Assembly: GCF_020745735.1 (NCBI RefSeq)
Contig: NC_083409.1
Location: forward strand, 11,072,978 to 11,136,977
Length of the DNA: 64,000 nt
Direction of reading: 5' to 3'
Origin: Hemiscyllium ocellatum
Taxonomy: Eukaryota
Shown here: positions 1 through 9,659 of the stretch, piece after piece
How positions within the stretch are numbered: position 1 is the first letter of the stretch
Layout of the letters: each line of letters begins with the position of its first letter
Program-made: the position numbers and the translations under genes
Notes under the pieces: generated by a model
The model's database searches: none
The model's input: only the letters and a program-made list of their open reading frames with translations
Told to the model about the DNA's origin: nothing

Positions 1-1166
1 AAAAACAGTGTGTGCACTAAAAACACCAGAGATCGAAAAGCATGATTCAAAACTTAGCTTAAAAGATCCGCTTTAAAAACATTGCCTTCTTTTAATCGAA
101 GGATAGAAAAGTGCAGGAGGAAAAGGGTTTGAATTTCAATAGCAATCCTTCAGTTCTAAACTCAGTAATTACACAGCGGAAATGGTGACTAATTCCTTGA
201 GAAATAATCAGGCTACTTGCACATATTTTGAGAGTTGATGGGCAACGTAGAAAACTCCGAGACACCAGAAATGTTAAGAATATTCCCCACAGCTTAATGT
301 TATCATCCAAAAATATATTTCACAATTTATGAAGATAATCCTCACAACAGTCCTTTGATGAAGGGTCCTTGGTAAAGGGGAACACTCAGGATAATTTCTA
401 AAAATGATGACCTGCAAACATGTGCCTGAAAAAAGTGGAGTTGTATTTTGACATATTGTCTGGGAAATAATGATAATCCTATAAGTATGTTAAAACATGG
501 TACTTACAAGTCGAGGACAAAGATCTGAAGATAATACTTCCTCCTTATCATCATCACTTTCAAATGTACCCAATGGGATATCAGTCTTGTGTTCCTCCTC
601 TAGATCCTTGGAAGGTGACCTGGGCCAGGATTCAACATCCAATTTGAACCGTAATCATTGATTAGTGAGCCAAACCTTCTCAGCTACAGACTTTGGGATT
701 TCTTGCCATTGTTCAATAGCGTCCTTGACAAAGGAAGATAGTATCATATCAACCACAGAATTGGCCTTTGAATCACTGCTCTTCAGATCATCTCCATTAA
801 AGTCTTCACTATCCTCACGATTGTCATTGGGTTCCTCTGCTTTAATGTCCATGTGCTCCTCATGAATTTCCTCCGATTGAGGCTCGAGGAATGGTACTTT
901 AAATTGAGTTGGTCCTTTTCCCTGTTCAGTAAATCCAACAGAGGAGCTGGAGTTCTAGTGGATATTTAGTGAAAGGTCCTCCCTTTGTGTACTGGAAGAA
1001 CACACAGACACATCAGCGTTAATATTGGTGTCTGTCTCCAGTGCTGCCTTGGATGCCTTCTCTCTGAACACATCAGTCTGTTAATTTTTTCTTAATTCTT
1101 GTCTTTATTCAAGTTTGCCAATCGGTCCTCCTTACCAGACTTGGGCAAGTTCTCTCACGTTTTGTT

Positions 1167-1808
1167 TGAGAAAGTCTATAGCCTTAAAACTTGTCCTGAA
1201 ACTTTTAGACTAAAATGTAATGTTGAATTATAGAACACATTTGCTGTCCACCAGAAAATAGAGAGGCTGGAGTGTAAGGCAATTAAGAACATTTTCCTGA
1301 GCATCAGTGAATCTGCATGAAGAGGACAGCAAGTGATAACATTCACAGCTGACCCTTTGTGAAATTAATAACTTGGTATCAATTAACTTCTCTCCTGAAT
1401 TATTGTCCTTCACTGTTATCTGTCTCATTTAGAACAAGCAGTGCTTTTGTTAACTTTTTGTCCAAAGAAAGCCTATTCTTGACAGTACAGCATATGTAAC
1501 CATTCGTATAATGGTAGCCTGTCTGTGATAGTACAGAGTAACCTGCCAGGGCTCTTGAAGGAAGAGCGATATCCTACTCTCCTGGGTTTTTAGAATCCAG
1601 TCAGCCTGGCTTATAGGTGTCAGTGTTATGTTGGAACAGTGATGCTATTAGTAAATTAAGGGGATGATTAAAATTAAACTAAACTGTCTGGAAAAGGTTA
1701 ATGTTTTATTCCAGACTTCCAAAAGTACGATCTCCGGGAAGATCCATGAGGCTTACAGGTTGAATTCACAAGGGATTCCCTGGGCAATCTCAAATCTGTA
1801 CTTTATCA
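1167..1808 (+). repeat. ERV 5' LTR
   Basis: Starts TGAGAAAG and ends CTTTATCA (TG...CA). Homologous to 7996-8301 plus 9271-9659. PBS follows 3 nt downstream. Confidence 0.88.
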
Positions 1809-1811
1809 ATT

Positions 1812-1829
1812 TGGCGCTGCGAGCAGGGT
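1812..1829 (+). promoter_or_regulatory. Primer-binding site, tRNA-Ser-like
   Basis: TGGCGCTGCGAGCAGGGT directly after the LTR. Resembles the complement of vertebrate tRNA-Ser(TGA/CGA) 3' ends as recalled (about 1-2 mismatches); not checked against a tRNA set. Confidence 0.7.
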
Positions 1830-1840
1830 TCCAACAAGGG

Positions 1841-1979
1841 ATGCGTTTGAATGAAACCAGAAAAGAGGAGCTTCACCCAAGGGCCGGTCTCGAGACCAAT
1901 GGGTCCACAAGGCAAGATTATACCTCGATTGCCCTCGGCCTGCTTCTTTGTGTGCTGCTTCCCCCATTTCATTCTCAAG
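1841..1979 (+). CDS. Putative spliced env leader/signal-peptide exon in the ERV 5' leader
   Basis: ATG at 1841 opens MRLNETRKEELHPRAGLETNGSTRQDYTSIALGLLLCVLLPPFHSQ. A hydrophobic core is followed immediately by a donor-like CAAG|GTACCC (GT at 1980-1981, phase 1). Confidence 0.5.
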
Positions 1980-2122
1980 GTACCCGGACGGAACCCTAAA
2001 TGAGATTGTTTAAATAGGTACTAAAAACAGAATCTTGTGGGGTTAGAGGCCCCTGTGTTTTGTGGGGTTGGAGCCCCTGTAGATCAGCAGTTCTGTGAAG
2101 ATTTAAAATAAATAGGATAAAT

Positions 2123-3300
2123 ATGGGTGCGCATTAAAAGTGAACAAGGAATTTGGAAAAAAAGGGAAGTAAACAGAAAGAAACCATATCAGCGTGGGAA
2201 AAGGTAGATAGGGAAAAATGGGAAAAAGCCATGCAATCATCATGGAGACAAAACTGTATTAAGAGGGGAATTAGTCCATTAACTGAGGAAGGATCTGAAC
2301 TAAAATGCAAATGTGAAGCACATGATTGAGAAGCAGAACTGGAATTGGCGAGGGAGAAAATAAAACAAAGTAAAGGTTCAGAACCTACGCTGAAATGTCA
2401 GGGGCCCCAAAGAAAAGGGAAACCCGGTGAATAAACAACAGACTGCAGCTGTAGCCGCGCAGGACCAGACTGATGACAAAGACAGTTCCTTATACCCCAC
2501 CTCTCCCAAAGACCCATTACTAAAGAATCCTGATCCATCTGCAGATAAGGAATGGGACACTGATACAGAGGAGGAAATATTTTACGCCTCCCGTCCTGTC
2601 AGCCGACTTCCTCCGGGTTTCCCCTCAAAACACACCCACAGTACGGCCAAGGGGAACACACTGCATAAAACAAAACATCGCCTGAACTCCCCTCCCAACT
2701 CTGAGGATGAACAAGCTAAGGGCCACGCCCTTCCCCAATGAATCATTTGTCCCTGTGTGTTAGGAGTGCTACAATTGCACTGATAAGTGGACTTAAGGCC
2801 ACTGATTTTGATCAAACCTAACTGCTGCTTTAACCAGATGGTGAAAGAAAATGATGCCCTGCTGAAAGAACCGAAACCTTGCTAGTTTTTCAAAATAGTA
2901 TTTCAGTTGGACTTGAAAACAACCAGAAGTGCAAGTTAAGTTCAAATTAATACAATTTAAAATTCCGATGAGCAGGATTAGGTCAATGTCCAGGCTGGCG
3001 ATTCCAACCATGACTGCTCATTAGTATTTACAGTCTGGCATTTTACTGGTACCGTGGATTCTCAACATCCCAATGGATCTTGGGGTCCTCCTCTGTATCC
3101 TCTCCAACAGTCCATGATGCCCCTTACCCTCTAAACATCCTCTCACTAGTCTTCACTCCCTCCCCCAACCCCTCGTGTCCCCCAACAATCAAACGTTTGT
3201 TTCAAATGTAATCAATTTGGACATTGGTCCAAGAACTGCCCTTTCCCAAAGCAGCCCCCGGTTGATCACCGGAGTGGAAGCAGCTGGCAACCTCCTGGTC
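2123..3300 (+). pseudogene. gag: ERV gag remnant
   Basis: ATG-GGT (MG) start at 2123. LYPTSP late-domain-like motif in ORF 2427-2741. Intact CCHC knuckle CFKCNQFGHWSKNC at 3198-3239. Many stops and frameshifts. Confidence 0.75.
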
Positions 3301-3319
3301 ACCCTCCCCAGGGACCTCA

Positions 3320-5403
3320 GCAGATTTGCCCTTTTATTGCACAAAACCCTTTTCCATCCTTGACACCTGTGCTATAGCGGTTCTTACCCAGCAACATGGC
3401 TCCTCTTGGTGCCCTGCTGCCTATCACTCCACTAAGCTTGACCCTGTTGCACAGGGTATGCCTTCCTGCACCCAGATTCTCCCCACCATCCATCCTATGG
3501 TATTGGCTGCCTCTAATATAACTTTACATCAAAATGTAGAAGTCTGTATCTCACATTCCGTGGTATCCTTACTTACTTCTAAACATACTCAACACCGAAC
3601 TGCAGCTCATCTAAGTTGCTATGAGATTTTATTACTTTAGAATCCACTTGTACCCTTCAAATACTGCTGGAACATTAACCACGCTACATTCGATGGTTCT
3701 TCTTCTATGTCTACAGAAGGCAAACACATGTCAGGATACACGATTGTCACTTTGTCCCATCCAACAGAAGCTTATTCCGTCGATCCACCCTGCCCCGCCC
3801 AGCAAGCTGAACTCCTTGCTCTGACCCCTGCCTGCATACTTGCTGAAGGAAAGTCAGCTCATATCGATACTGATTCCCTTTGGATGTGCCCATGATGAAA
3901 TCTGGCAGCAGCACAACTTCCTTATCTCATCAGGAACCCCGAGCCTCAATGCTGCCTATGTTGCTAATCTCCTCAGTGATAATCAACTTCCCTTTCAATT
4001 GGCAATTATCAAATGTTCGGCTCACTCCTCTGATGCTGCCGATGTCACTAAAAGCACCAATGCCGCTGACACAGCGGCTGAGAAACCAGCTTTTGAGCCA
4101 AAGACATGGTTACTCAAATGACGAATCAGAAACCAAAGGGAGACTCTCCGATTTCCTCTTCTCACACCCCGACCCTGCCTGACCTAGAAGAAATTTGGAT
4201 CCATCAGGGGGACACCTCTGATTAAGGAAAACAAAAATGGATGAACCATGGTTGTTATGTAAATAGCTGCAATCAGCTTTGGGTTACGCTGGTAGAATAG
4301 ACATGTCTGCCCGATTCACTTCTGCCTATTCTCGTTGATTATGTTCAAATACATGCACGTGGAGTTAAGGAGGGAATGGTGGACAGAATTCTCCAAACTT
4401 AGTGGAATCCCCACCTGCAAGAAAAATCAAAATAAACAGCTTCAAATTGACAAATTTGTCAAAACATTAATCTCAGGAAAGGAGTGAAGTGTTCCCCAGG
4501 TGAATTTCCCTTGCCAAATGCACATTTTGCCACGATCCAGTGAGATTTTAGACAGTCACCAAGATGCCATTGTCATAAGTAATGCTTAGTGATAATCAAT
4601 GTATTTAATAAATAGATTGGCGTTTATCCCTGTACTGACTGCACAGCAACAACTACTTGTAAAATTCTGTTAAGGGAAATCATACCCAGATTTGAAATAC
4701 CATTAATGGTCTTTTCCGATAATGGCTCCCACTTCTGTGCGGAGCTAACCAAGCCACTATGTAAGAGTTTGAATACAAGTCAAAAATCCCATTATGTCAA
4801 CCATCTCCAAGCAGCGGGAATTGTAGAAAGAGCCAATTGTAATTTAAAAGGTCAGCTCAGCAAGTTGGTGGAAGAAACTGGTCGTAATTGGCTTCAAGTA
4901 TTCCCAAATGCCCTTTTTAATATGAGAAAACCATGACATAGAAAAAGACGGGATTCTCAGCGGCTGAACTGAAATATGGAAAGCTCCTGAGGACACCCTG
5001 GTCTGCACCATTAACTCCCCAACACCCGGTTGATGTGCAAGTCATGGCAGAAGAAATGCGCACGTACCTGATTAAGCTGACCAAAGCATTGCAGTCGTAT
5101 CATCAACTGATCAAAGTAGCCTATTGAGTACCAGGGAAGGATGAAAAGCGAGCTCCAACGTTTAAAAACATCAACCCTGGTGACTATGTACGATTGAAAG
5201 TCTTTAATCATCAAAAATTGGGCCCTCACTAGAAAGGTCCTTATCAAGCTCTTCTGACAACTGAAACTGCACTAATAGTAGAAGGATGTTCAACATTGGT
5301 CGATAAAGGACATTGCAAGCTTGTATCCCCCTCACAGTCCTGTGTTAGTACTGATACAGGTATCCGACGAAAACCCAACCCAAGTACGTATGTCCAGATG
5401 TAA
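3320..5403 (+). pseudogene. pol: ERV pol remnant: RT connection domain, RNase H and integrase (protease and RT core missing)
   Basis: AVLTQQHG...AYHSTKLDPVAQGMPSC (MLV-like connection). DGSS, AQQAELLALT and TDS (RNase H). SDNGSHF and GIVERAN (IN core). GPYQALLTTETAL (GPY/F motif). The IN frame stops at 5401-5403. Confidence 0.9.
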
Positions 5404-5794
5404 CCGACCCATCTGTGATACCTCAGACTGGCTAAAACTCCAATGTAACTGTACAAATGAAACCTGTACTAATACCATTGGAAGTTATGAATGCAGCTGC
5501 CCAGCTGAAACTCAGTTAAACTGCTCAGATTTTGTATCCAAACATCACTCTCGACCTTGTCATCATCCTCGTAACACTTCCGTACCAGCCATCATGAAAT
5601 GGCACAATTCCATAACCTCAGCAACTCCATCAACCGAAAACTGTTACTTTGAAATGTTTGTCTGTTCCCCTCTCAAAACGAACAGTATGGACTGCAGTAT
5701 TGAGCACACAGTACCAAAATCACCAAACCCTCAGGCACCTCTCGCCATGAGACAGACAACCTGTGCCTTCTCGATGGCATCTTCTCCTATCTGA
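5349..5794 (+). CDS. env: N-terminal env segment with an EGF-like (cbEGF signature) Cys-rich module
   Basis: ORF in the +1 frame relative to IN, overlapping its end. CTNTIGSYECSC at 5465-5500 matches C-x-[DN]-x4-[FY]-x-C-x-C. Four N-glycosylation sequons (NCT, NET, NCS, NTS). Confidence 0.6.
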
Positions 5795-7919
5795 CCTACT
5801 GCCACTGACAGAAATACCTTCACATAGGTTCCTCGTTAATCTAAATATCGGATTATCCGAAGTTGATTTGAAGGTCCCGATAGAAACATTACATCAAAGA
5901 GCGATTTCAATCCTGATCACGTCATCTGTTTACAGGTACAATGATTAAAAGCAAACTCGGCTCACTAAATGCTGCCGAGGACAGTCCTGAACAGTCCAGG
6001 CACCATCTCCAAATGGCTGACCTCCTGCCTTCTCTCTCCCTCCCCCAACACTCTCCCTGGAGTTCTACACAGGGGTGAACGCCAAACCCACCCCATCCCC
6101 AGATTATCACTCCAACATTGTCCTGAACAGGGCAGAGGCAGAAACTGTCAAAATGTTGCACGTGCTATTTGGAGACTTATCCCACAAAGGCAGCAGCAGT
6201 CTTACCGTTGGTGTACAGTCCGGCTGCCCGACGGCGGGAGGGGGGGAGGAGATGCCGTCGGGGATTCGGACGGTAGGTGGGGATGGATGGGGGTGCAAGG
6301 TTGGGGGAGTGGGGTTGGGACCGGACGGACGATGGTGTTGGGTTTGGGTGGGGGGTGGGGAGGGTTGAGGGCGGTGGGGTTGGGGGTAGACAGGTTCTCG
6401 CAAGCAATGTGCTTTTGCTGAGAGTCTCCTGATTGGGGATCAGACTTCACAGACCCAGAGGAAATCAATTAACTGAGTAATCAATCAATTATCTGAATGA
6501 AATAGTGCCTGCCCATCTCGTTTGGATAATCGAGGTTCCTCTGTACACAGTTCCTATATTCAATAGTTAATTTAATTAAGATGACAAGCTGGAAAGCTGA
6601 AGAAAGATCAAAAATACTCTGTACTCCCAATCTCCAATCTGTTACCAATGGTTTCTTGATTCAAGCTAAGCCATCGATCCATGTGTTATTTGCTCACTCT
6701 TCCATCATTCTGATGTCCAGTGTATAAATAGGACTCACCCACTTATGCAACCCTTCACTTATGCTGGCAAAACCCATTCGGTAGAAGAAGCACGTCGCTG
6801 TGTGAAGTGCACTAACAAACGTCAAGGATTCAACGTTAACGTTGTTCCGCTGTTAGAATGGTGTGTTGAAAGAACTTCTGGTACTCACGACATGGGGAAC
6901 GTGAAGCCAGCACTGTGTAAGAATGTTATCAAAGACACTGGTCATACTCCTGCTCTTCATCCATTAATACACTTGGACATCCAAACGTTTGATAGCATCC
7001 GCTGTTTACAAGATTCAGCTCTCGCTCTGAGTGGACTCATCATTCACTCACAAGAGTGCGCCTTTCGAACTCCTTTCAGCCTTCATTGGCGATGCGAAAA
7101 CAAAGGCTACCCATATTTTACCCAATGACTGGTACCAATGTTGTGCCCTAGTACAAACTTTACCACTTGTTACCCTCCACCATGAAGTACCTGAGGTAGG
7201 TGATGAATGAACGCCTACCAACATGTGAAGCAGTATGGAACAAAATGAAGAGGAAATACAAACAGGACTTAGACAACTTCTTCCATCAATAAACCTGGTG
7301 ATGCAAATTGCTGGGAGGCCTTACTCCTTGCTGGGATTTTGAGAAGGCCCGAGATCAGATAACTGACCTTGCATATGACATTGAAAAACTTGCCAACTCA
7401 ATTGCCCACGCTTTGAAGCTGGTGAACAAAGAGGTACAGGAGACCTGGATGGTAACACTTCAGAATTGGCTAGTGCTACATTTCCTCCTTGCTAAAGGAG
7501 GAGGTGCTTGTTCTGTTATTGGCCCGCAATGTTGCACCTACATCAATGATTTCTCTAAAAACATTTTGGACAACGTAGATGTTATCAACAAAATGGGTCA
7601 AGGTGCAGGGAAGATACCTGCCCCACCGTCATCCAATCCATATGGATGGAGTGTTACTTGCTGGCTTTGGTCGCTGTGTGGATGGATCGTGTGGGAGGTA
7701 CTGATAGCCCCCGGTCTCATCCTAGGAATAAACAGTGTCGTCCACTTGTGCATGGAATGGAACATACATTCCTCTTTGGCTAAGATGAAAAGCAATCTTG
7801 TTAATCGACTCTTGCCTACCCCTGTAGCTCCACGTCTGAATGTCTCCACTGAAATCCAGCATCTTTCCGCTCTGATCCTCCGGACAATGACTCGCAAGAG
7901 GAAGCACTCAAATTATTGA
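5763..7919 (+). pseudogene. env: ERV env remnant (SU plus gamma-type TM)
   Basis: Pro/Thr-rich stretch, CVIC (CxxC) at 6682-6693, and WRC..KGYPY(L)PNDW..CC at the SU C-terminus. TM ORF 7308-7919 has ISD LQNWLVLHFLLAKGGGAC, CX6CC (CSVIGPQCC) at 7458-7535 and a hydrophobic anchor. Confidence 0.88.
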
Positions 7920-7983
7920 GAATACAAATCGACTGAATGTACGAATTATACTTGTATAAGCTATGTAGTTGTCATGAAATGAC

Positions 7984-7995
7984 AAAAGGAGGGAA
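7984..7995 (+). promoter_or_regulatory. Polypurine tract
   Basis: AAAAGGAGGGAA immediately before the TG that begins the 3' LTR. Confidence 0.85.
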
Positions 7996-8301
7996 TGAGA
8001 AAGTTTATAGCCTTAAAACATTTCGACTAAATGTAATGTTGAATTATAGAACACATTTGTTGCACAGTAGAAAATAAACAGGACAGCCAGGGAGGCACCA
8101 GGCCACAAAAGGGGGAACCCAGGATGTGCAGAAGATAAAAACATCTGTTCTCACCAAGTGGTAACAGGATGCTCCAAGGTTATTAAGAACATTTGCCTTA
8201 ACAGCAATGAATCTGTGTAAACAGGACAGAGTGATTACATTCACGGGTGTTCACTTGTGAAATTAATGACAGTGTTTGATTTTGACTTCTGACTTGGTAT
8301 C
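7996..8301 (+). repeat. ERV 3' LTR, 5' part (U3)
   Basis: TGAGAAAGTTTATAGCCTTAAAAC start matches 1167. Homology to the 5' LTR ends at ACTTGGTATCA. Confidence 0.82.
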
Positions 8302-9270
8302 ATTCTGCAAGCATGTCAAAAGCCTTGTAATTAATGGTCAGGTCATATCAATTATACTGGATTCTTATTACCCTTGCAGGCTCGGCAGAGAGAAAGGGAA
8401 AAACATTATTCTGTTACAGTCCGTAACCTGGGTGTTCAAAAAGACACTAGAGAGAGAATGAGAGAATAACATTATAACGCCGAGATTGCCAAAGCTAATA
8501 GAAAATTAACTGTGGTTTGGTTTGAATGCAAGCTTACTTATTGTGGATTCAACATAGAAAACAGGTGCAGGAGTAGGCCATTCGGCCCTTCGAGCTAGCA
8601 CCAGCATTTATTATGGCCATGGCTGATTATCCACAATCAGTATCCTGTTCCGGTGTTATCTTTATAACCCTTGTTTTAAACTTAATTTAATTTTGGGACT
8701 TCATGATTATTTTGAGAAACCATTGTATAAAATGCAAATTCTGTAAAAGGTAATGCTGACAAAGCTTTAACTTACTTCCTGTTCTGACAGACCATGACTG
8801 CCCCACTGTCAATTCTAACAAGTCAGATCTATGTCCTCTTTGAATTTGAATCACAACCCTGAAAAGAAAAAAATGTCTAATTCGAGACGAATGAATCATT
8901 TGAAATACAACCTTACAGTAACAATTCAGCCTCAGGTTCAAAATGATTGTTTTCTTAAGATAAAAAGCAAGAGTCTGCTCCTAGTTTAAAAATTATTCTA
9001 ACCCAACATTGAAGAGATTCTGACACAATCTATGAGGAAGCCATTTTCTACGGTCAAAGTTTGCCTTCCCTAGCTAAGAAGCCATTTTGTGAAACATGAG
9101 ACCTGACATGCGAGGTTACCTTATGACTTCTCCCACTTAGTTTCGACTTGTGCCTCCTTATAGGAAGGACTTGTCTCGCCAACAGGTGCCTGACTCGGCT
9201 GAATCTGTTTTTCCCATCTGATGGATGACTACGGGCTGTGGGAGTGATCACTTAGGTGCACACGGACCTG

Positions 9271-9659
9271 TCAATTAACTTCTCTTGCTTATGAATTATT
9301 TCCAATATTGTCTGTCTAATGAAGTGTTTAAGTCTAATCAAATGCAGTGTTTTTGTAAAATTGTGTATAAAGGAACCCTGTTTGTGACAGGAGAGAGTAA
9401 CCTGCAACAAGGCAGAGCTGGTCGCTACTCTCCTCAGGTTTTAGAACTTTAGCTAGTCTGGCTAATAAGAACCAGTGTTATGTTGTAACAGTGATGTTAT
9501 TGGTAAATAAAGGGGAAGACTAAAATTAAACTAAACTGTAAGACATTTTTATTCCAGGCTATTCCAGGCTCAGTACGATCGCCGGGACAAACCAAGAGAG
9601 GCTTACAGGTCTGAGGCCACAAGGGATTCCTTGGGCCATCTCAAATCTGTACTTTAACA
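9271..9659 (+). repeat. ERV 3' LTR, 3' part (rest of U3, R, U5)
   Basis: Resumes 5'-LTR homology at AATTAACTTCTC. TATAAA at ~9366, AATAAA at 9506-9511. Ends CTTTAACA. Confidence 0.8.

Follow-up and report, generated by a model that had tools for sequence, protein, structure and literature searches.

The locus described here raises the question of whether a retroviral envelope glycoprotein (Env) can carry a host-type EGF domain in its surface subunit (SU), and of what such a domain did for the virus. The window, i.e. the whole 64-kb stretch of DNA that was analysed (G000:C9:11072978-11136977), holds a decayed provirus at 1167..9659 with two LTRs, gag and pol remnants and an env region (Table 1). 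A sequence-only reading had placed an EGF module in an ORF straight after integrase. The stop-free frame 5282-5794 does come after the integrase remnant, the start at 5349 assigned to it earlier being one base off frame, and contains the motif C-x-[DN]-x4-[FY]-x-C-x-C at 5465-5500. This is the sole six-frame match in the window, against 0.017 matches per shuffled window (60 shuffles), and 98 of 300,000 residue shuffles of the ORF reproduce it. The count of at least six Cys and four N-glycan sequons also holds, as residues of 5348-5791 comprise 13 Cys and 4 sequons. A primer-binding-site-like sequence lies directly 3′ of the 5′ LTR, at 1810-1827.

Table 1. Features of the provirus in the window (positions of the window; + is the forward strand)
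Feature	Position	Strand	Evidence
5′ LTR, internally deleted, shorter than the 3′ LTR	1167..1808	+	Direct repeats vs 7996-9659, 75-78% identity
Decayed gag region, partly deleted	2120..3265	+	Matches sister provirus parts; assigned as gag by its position
Decayed pol: RT connection/RNase H remnants and integrase; most of RT missing	3266..5400	+	RT_RNaseH E=3.3e-5, RNase_H E=4.5e-4, rve E=2.1e-4
env start and putative signal peptide, overlapping the integrase end; broken in the window copy	5295..5370	+	L049 and L051 frames
N-terminal Cys block, 4 Cys, front half of hybrid EGF	5399..5457	+	Cys kept in short copies
Junction; long-form copies have ~540 nt more here	5457..5458	+	Breakpoint common to 15/15 aligned short copies
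Back half of calcium-binding-type EGF, Cys3-Cys6	5458..5533	+	EGF_CA E=3.8e-4; Cys counts
Second Cys region, 4 conserved Cys, then linker to SU core	5534..5820	+	Cys counts in short copies
721-bp non-autonomous DNA transposon, outside env proper	5823..6543	.	Terminal inverted repeats, TA target
SU core, frameshifted, CxxC at 6682-6693	6546..7290	+	Homology to sister env
TM: ISD-like stretch, CX6CC, membrane anchor; decayed	7290..7919	+	TLV_coat E=0.0022
3′ LTR	7996..9659	+	Direct repeats vs 5′ LTR

The window copy by itself bears out the proposed Env in part. Its EGF does match the Pfam profile EGF_CA, but at 21.1 bits the match stays below the 27-bit cut-off and is confined to positions 9-35 of the 43 in the profile. 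No ATG is present in the env start region, which carries one stop and one frame break. Both the CxxC at 6682 and the TM with CX6CC are present downstream as described; the EGF, CxxC and TM of this copy, however, lie in three frames, and a common frame for the EGF and CxxC is found in related copies.

The Pro-rich stretch attributed to env, given earlier without coordinates, was located as Pro/Gly-rich frames at ~6020-6470, which sit inside the 721-bp transposon. The order RBD-PRR-CxxC of MLV-type Env is not supported for this locus, its supposed proline-rich region (PRR) being transposon sequence. The terminal inverted repeats of the element agree at 17 of 24 nt, with TA at the right end and a G-rich interior, and from its end structure we take it to belong to the Tc1/mariner-pogo group. 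It has 5,001 first-look candidates in the genome, was free of any provirus in 7/7 other loci checked, and occurs in 10 of 96 proviral loci. Because the Pro-rich frames belong to a transposon absent from the remaining 86, the region was rejected as an env PRR. With the insert removed, the env of the window spans ~1,900 nt (~630 codons), and the length of roughly 800 residues or more predicted for it fits the long form only.

The motif is conserved in related proviral copies, and the EGF proves to be a trait of the family, complete in the long-form loci. Copies were collected by DNA search (at least 40 scored matches, of 1,568 candidates) and by protein search (at least 118 matches), and 96 loci were classed, the window included; these are the loci fetched, not a census. 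The long env 5′ end is present in 28 of the 96 and the short junction is read through in 69, including the window. L053 (G000:C14:16948300-16958200) is counted in both forms, as it has a long and a short element in opposite orientation within 10 kb. Once near-duplicates (>=90% alike) and L053 were dropped, 25 long and 42 short copies were left. No intact env was found among the copies examined.

Ten of the short loci, the window among them, have common flanking DNA and a common transposon and are segmental duplicates of one integration. Since nine fetched copies of the G000:C9/C10/C11 cluster share the flank of the window, a host segment must have been duplicated several times. The cluster, at G000:C9 ~9-24 Mb plus C10 and C11, comprises at least 17 matches of the window provirus, with 87-100% identity; an exon-like frame is seen near the duplicated provirus, at window 655-954 on the minus strand. 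The long form was also found in runs of two other organism labels (X10, X17), in contigs of 153-391 nt with ~95-97% identity over the EGF region, and the family therefore appears to predate the split from this species. Short contigs of run X20, whose RNA nature is a guess, cover the EGF pair and were not counted as evidence.

The long-form env is arranged in the order signal peptide, Cys block, Thr-rich stretch, EGF1, calcium-binding-type EGF2, second Cys region, SU core with CxxC, and TM. The natural frame of L051 runs from a Met and a hydrophobic signal-like run through a Cys-rich block, a 67-residue stretch of 34% Thr+Ser, EGF1 and EGF2 to the four-Cys region, and in L049, as in L051, the Met and hydrophobic run (a signal peptide as judged by eye) are in frame with the EGF region. 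EGF1 exceeds the EGF_3 cut-off of 28.5 bits in four of six long copies scanned (29.6, 31.6, 34.3 and 35.7 bits), the other two reaching 23.7 and 27.8. Its six Cys are in EGF spacing, each kept in 18-20 of 22-24 scored long copies, and its part of the long-form AlphaFold model has a pLDDT of 71-80. As to EGF2, 21-22 of 23 long copies retain the acidic start, and the ligand columns (acidic start, Asn, aromatic) are kept in 19-22 of 21-23; EGF_CA scores are 12-19 bits, below cut-off. The full calcium-binding pattern of PROSITE fits 7/20 long as against 0/27 short read-throughs. These properties indicate a predicted EGF-like domain in EGF1 and a predicted calcium-binding EGF in EGF2.

The N-terminal Cys block of L067 (6058-6300) shows a faint match to EGF_STAB1-2 (E=0.18), and the block may therefore be a degenerate third EGF, which is offered as a lead only; a profile of the block matched nothing (best E=0.1). 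The second Cys region (5534..5820 in the window) gave neither a Pfam match nor a fold match.

The EGF module is assigned to env because the EGF pair and CxxC share one natural open frame with no intron in L054 and L071, and the SU core of L061 is in one frame with the start of TM. Without the transposon, the long env comes to ~810 codons and the short env to ~630. The two Cys of CxxC are kept in 19/23 and 21/23 long copies and in 27/31 and 29/35 short copies. The matches of TM profiles, TLV_coat in the window and an Ebola-like HR1-HR2 profile in L048 (E=2e-4), are below cut-off, and CX6CC is seen in the alignment. A TM with heptad repeat/ISD and CX6CC, together with CxxC in SU, places the family among the predicted gamma-type Envs.

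The types of domain found also bear on the suggestion that the module mimicked a growth factor acting on the EGF receptor, for which poxviruses offer a precedent (PMC10963461). The best profile matches are to EGF_3 and EGF_CA, PF00008 reaching 13-16 bits against its cut-off of 21.5 and passing it in no scanned copy, and the tandem linker is of the matrix/adhesion type. EGFR ligands need an Arg before the last Cys, and this Arg is absent from EGF1 in natural frames. Such mimicry is thus very improbable.

The short form differs from the long form by the loss of ~540 nt (180 codons, in frame), holding the rest of the Cys block, the Thr-rich stretch, EGF1 and the front of EGF2. The breakpoint at window 5457/5458 is identical in each of the 15 aligned short copies. 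In the 10 decayed long copies scored, the words at either end of the segment are alike at 6-9 of 11 nt; reverse-transcriptase template switching is expected between short similar words of this kind. The join places Cys3 of EGF2 four residues after an N-terminal-block Cys, the lost segment contains 12 Cys, an even number, and the hEGF profile spans the junction, though below cut-off (E=0.018 in the window, E=0.001-0.02 across copies). These three features make a hybrid EGF in disulfide register plausible. The window EGF is a predicted hybrid, of which only the back half is derived from a calcium-binding EGF.

Conservation of Cys in the short copies extends over the whole region. Those of the N-terminal block are kept in 34/36, 35/39, 35/41 and 35/42 copies, those of the second Cys region in 32/37, 32/35, 35/36 and 34/36, and the sixth Cys of the hybrid EGF, absent in the window copy, in 35/39 scored copies. 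The short form does not fit the calcium-binding EGF pattern in any of the 27 read-throughs, the acidic start before Cys1 being part of the missing segment. AlphaFold models are weak (mean pLDDT 38.5 for the short, hybrid form and 49.2 for the long form). With the long model, the top 10 Foldseek rows are all EGF-containing chains, none at E<=1e-3 (best 0.13), and VIA-align gave nothing above Z 3.7.

In both the env and the integrase tree, the long and short forms fall into separate clades (support 1.0; no outgroup root), and the branch that connects them measures 0.08 in env and 0.035 in integrase. Each lineage has the star-like shape of a burst, with a median non-CpG divergence from the column majority of 0.067 (long) and 0.064 (short; p=0.89), so that the two bursts are equally old. 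LTR-LTR mismatch is noisy, some pairs possibly being other repeats, and its medians of 0.13 for long (n=11) and 0.17 for short (n=9) give no order of the two lineages. Trees and ages do not fix the direction of change; a deletion from long to short is simpler, since the opposite change would require an insertion that completed half an EGF exactly.

Functional constraint on env has been assessed from nonsynonymous/synonymous differences between the lineages as compared to singletons, in eight regions that leave out EGF1 and the front of EGF2. A silent excess between lineages is recorded for integrase (7/13 vs 671/180 in singletons), TM (5/14 vs 351/100, p=5e-6), the SU core (24/21 vs 736/205, p=4e-4) and the mature 5′ part common to both forms (16/14 vs 476/134, p=0.003). 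The EGF2 back half, one of the eight regions, gave 2/4 vs 85/21 (p=0.02, on six differences and uncorrected; p=0.07 in an earlier run with fewer copies), and in the signal region plus N-block the silent excess was not significant. Purifying selection thus acted on env along the branch that separates the two forms. Within the 42 non-duplicate short copies, common variants are richer in silent changes in the SU core (p=0.007) and TM (p=0.03), which suggests that the full EGF module was dispensable; the hybrid-EGF zone shows no selection signal in this lineage (4/1 vs 88/21, p=1). No region is significant within the long lineage (p=0.10-1). Taken together, the selection results suggest that env worked in a virus with the EGFs, and still worked after most of the module was gone.

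These results also bear on the view that the EGF likeness is due to chance, or is a neutral passenger inserted after integration. The Pfam score of the window itself, below cut-off, speaks for such a view. It is hardly credible, and is largely refuted, as EGF_3 is above cut-off in four long copies, the module is common to the 25 long and 42 short non-duplicate copies and lies in a natural frame with signal peptide and CxxC, and selection is evident between the lineages. At the level of the family, none of the outcomes that the sequence-only reading named as fatal to it (lack of any EGF profile or structural match, a motif not conserved among proviral copies, a one-off or out-of-frame insertion) was observed.

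The origin of the module is approached through a sister env family of the same genome (L152-L157, L161, L163), which aligns with the EGF-bearing family over the SU core and TM (28% identity, E=8e-34, via copy L061). The N-terminal 345 residues gave no alignment with the sister env (best E=2.8), and Pfam detects no EGF in sister-family frames at E<=5 in the four frames scanned, of which L155 is also without an env match. The sister TM profile match is above cut-off (53 bits). Since the sister env has the same SU core and TM and no EGF, the EGF module was probably captured. The complete EGF pair in related copies and the EGF-free sister env uphold the proposed capture of a host-type EGF module into the N-terminal SU, and the module is, very probably, a real host-type EGF fused to env. 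The sister env has a single Cys where the EGF-bearing family has CxxC, so any isomerase role of CxxC is putative.

The sister ERV family is the younger of the two, with open env frames of up to 819 codons from stop to stop (e.g. G000:C115:1252700-1255200). Three features mark its SU: a start rich in Ser and Thr, a Cys-rich region of no recognised type, and an additional furin-like basic site immediately ahead of the common core.

The search for a donor gave a SUSD1-like lead and no close donor in the own genome. The N-terminal EGF pair of SUSD1 (P0016, P0027, P0029) resembles the viral pair in that a non-calcium EGF with C-x2-C-H-x-x-A-T-C precedes a calcium-binding EGF, with 35% identity over 110 aa and an equal 20-residue spacing to a later Cys, and SUSD1 is the top ESM Atlas lead for the viral pair (0.80). 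Unlike SUSD1, the viral env has no sushi domains. When 35 proteins and 29 host loci are ranked by a profile of the pair, named SUSD1 proteins take ranks 3, 4 and 6, within a few bits of others. Some other EGF arrays reach equal or higher scores, and adhesion-GPCR-like, fibrillin-like and plant WAK EGFs are comparable to SUSD1. The best phmmer match is a lancelet adhesion-GPCR-like protein, and exon 1 of the own-genome SUSD1 scores below fish SUSD1. A SUSD1-like donor is thus a tentative lead. The viral pair is intronless, whereas the host SUSD1 EGFs are on separate exons 6.4 kb apart; the likely SUSD1 gene, at G000:C2:118.35-118.42 Mb, has two EGF exons and about a dozen sushi exons.

Searches of the own genome with the EGF pair returned proviral copies and weak matches (E>=0.006) in one host EGF array, with no close donor among them, which points to an ancient capture or to a donor that has diverged. 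Among host sequences of the genome, L137 (G000:C14:30051000-30060900) matches the viral EGF pair best (31-39% identity); it has 723- and 878-codon open frames of intronless tandem EGF repeats. A single tandem array at G000:C54:62.87-63.27 Mb contains more than 100 near-identical EGF_3 exons and swamped the genome search with EGF_3. Outside the genome, HMMER against 1.84 billion representatives gave 32 matches, every one of them restricted to the EGFs or the Thr-rich stretch, with the SU core left unmatched. Word-index protein searches with the long-form 5′ ORF, the EGF pair and the TM alignment, which cover longer proteins only and are weak evidence, returned nothing at E<=1e-3, and no match was obtained in PDB sequences, phages or viral contigs.

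With regard to function, the EGF pair on its Thr-rich stalk could well have served as an optional attachment arm, the SU core and TM carrying out entry; the chances of this reading are about even, and it rests on the architecture of the protein and on the model of bioRxiv 10.1101/2024.03.17.585361. A stricter role, in which the EGF module is the primary receptor-binding domain in both forms and the hybrid EGF keeps or switches specificity, agrees with its position in the N-terminal slot that is wholly different between the family and the sister env, with the conservation of all hybrid-EGF Cys across short copies and with the silent excess in the EGF2 back half between lineages. It is nevertheless rather unlikely, as the short lineage is without EGF1 and the calcium-ligand start, yet has purifying selection on SU core and TM; the hybrid zone has no selection signal within that lineage, and the N-terminal Cys block or the post-EGF Cys region could bind equally well. 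It is possible, though doubtful, that the EGFs bound a receptor and that in-register recombination of two Cys modules would have produced a new hybrid EGF in a still infectious virus.

The stretch adjoining the EGFs, with its 34% Thr+Ser, can also be read differently, the EGFs being no more than a rigid and glycosylated spacer or shield of host-like appearance, which binds nothing itself and serves to present the N-terminal Cys block. The 4 sequons in 148 residues of the window form and the tolerance of a 180-codon shortening are consistent with this; a pure spacer, though, would need the acidic calcium-ligand start, so widely kept in the long copies, for rigidity only. This reading is considered unlikely.

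Under the attachment-arm reading, the virus would have acquired its EGF pair when it recombined with a spliced host mRNA, likely of a cell-surface gene. A template switch between the two short similar words would then have removed EGF1 together with the Thr-rich stretch and the calcium-ligand start while preserving the cysteine register, and both forms would have continued germline infection. One short copy would later have taken up the transposon and multiplied by segmental duplication, giving rise to the window.

The closest known system is the alpha-like Env whose RBD is a SIRP-like IgV domain of mammalian gene origin, described in bioRxiv 10.1101/2024.03.17.585361, whose Discussion proposes newly acquired domains as extra attachment aids; the main text does not contain the term 'EGF'. 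In both cases a host extracellular domain is N-terminal in a gamma-type SU, behind a viral signal peptide, in several proviruses. The present family differs from the IgV Env as described there in that its host-type domains are a tandem EGF pair preceded by a Cys block and a Thr-rich stretch, in having a CxxC, and in having a second lineage with a deleted hybrid. The gamma-type Env (GTE) of fish and amphibian ERVs (bioRxiv 10.1101/2021.11.23.469661; PMC9967133) is similar in its TM with ISD-like stretch and CX6CC and in the CxxC of its SU core; unlike GTE, neither an MLV-type RBD nor a proline-rich region was found in the EGF family. The anamniote survey (bioRxiv 10.1101/2021.11.23.469661) reports capture of OGFr inside pol; its main text is without 'EGF', and its supplements may hold the EGF family unannotated. 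In crocodilian ERVs, nectin3 is present in place of env and KIT ligand between pol and env (PMC4299795). These are likewise intronless host cell-surface or ligand sequences in an ERV lineage, but there env is replaced or the capture is a separate ORF, whereas here the EGFs are fused inside a retained env. Searches of open-access PMC and bioRxiv listed no natural EGF-bearing Env; one precedent of host-domain capture into Env was found (SIRP-like IgV), and none for EGF.

The way in which retroviral envelopes acquire new receptor-binding parts is not settled. The EGF Env would be a second, independent capture of a host domain into Env, with a different fold, and EGF display on Env, known to the sequence-only reading from engineered vectors only, occurred in nature. 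One genome here offers a natural comparison between the full form, a form without most of the module and an EGF-free sister env, and this comparison fits the proposal that new domains start as optional attachment aids. If the receptor-binding reading is true, domain capture and domain shuffling would both be visible in one Env lineage.
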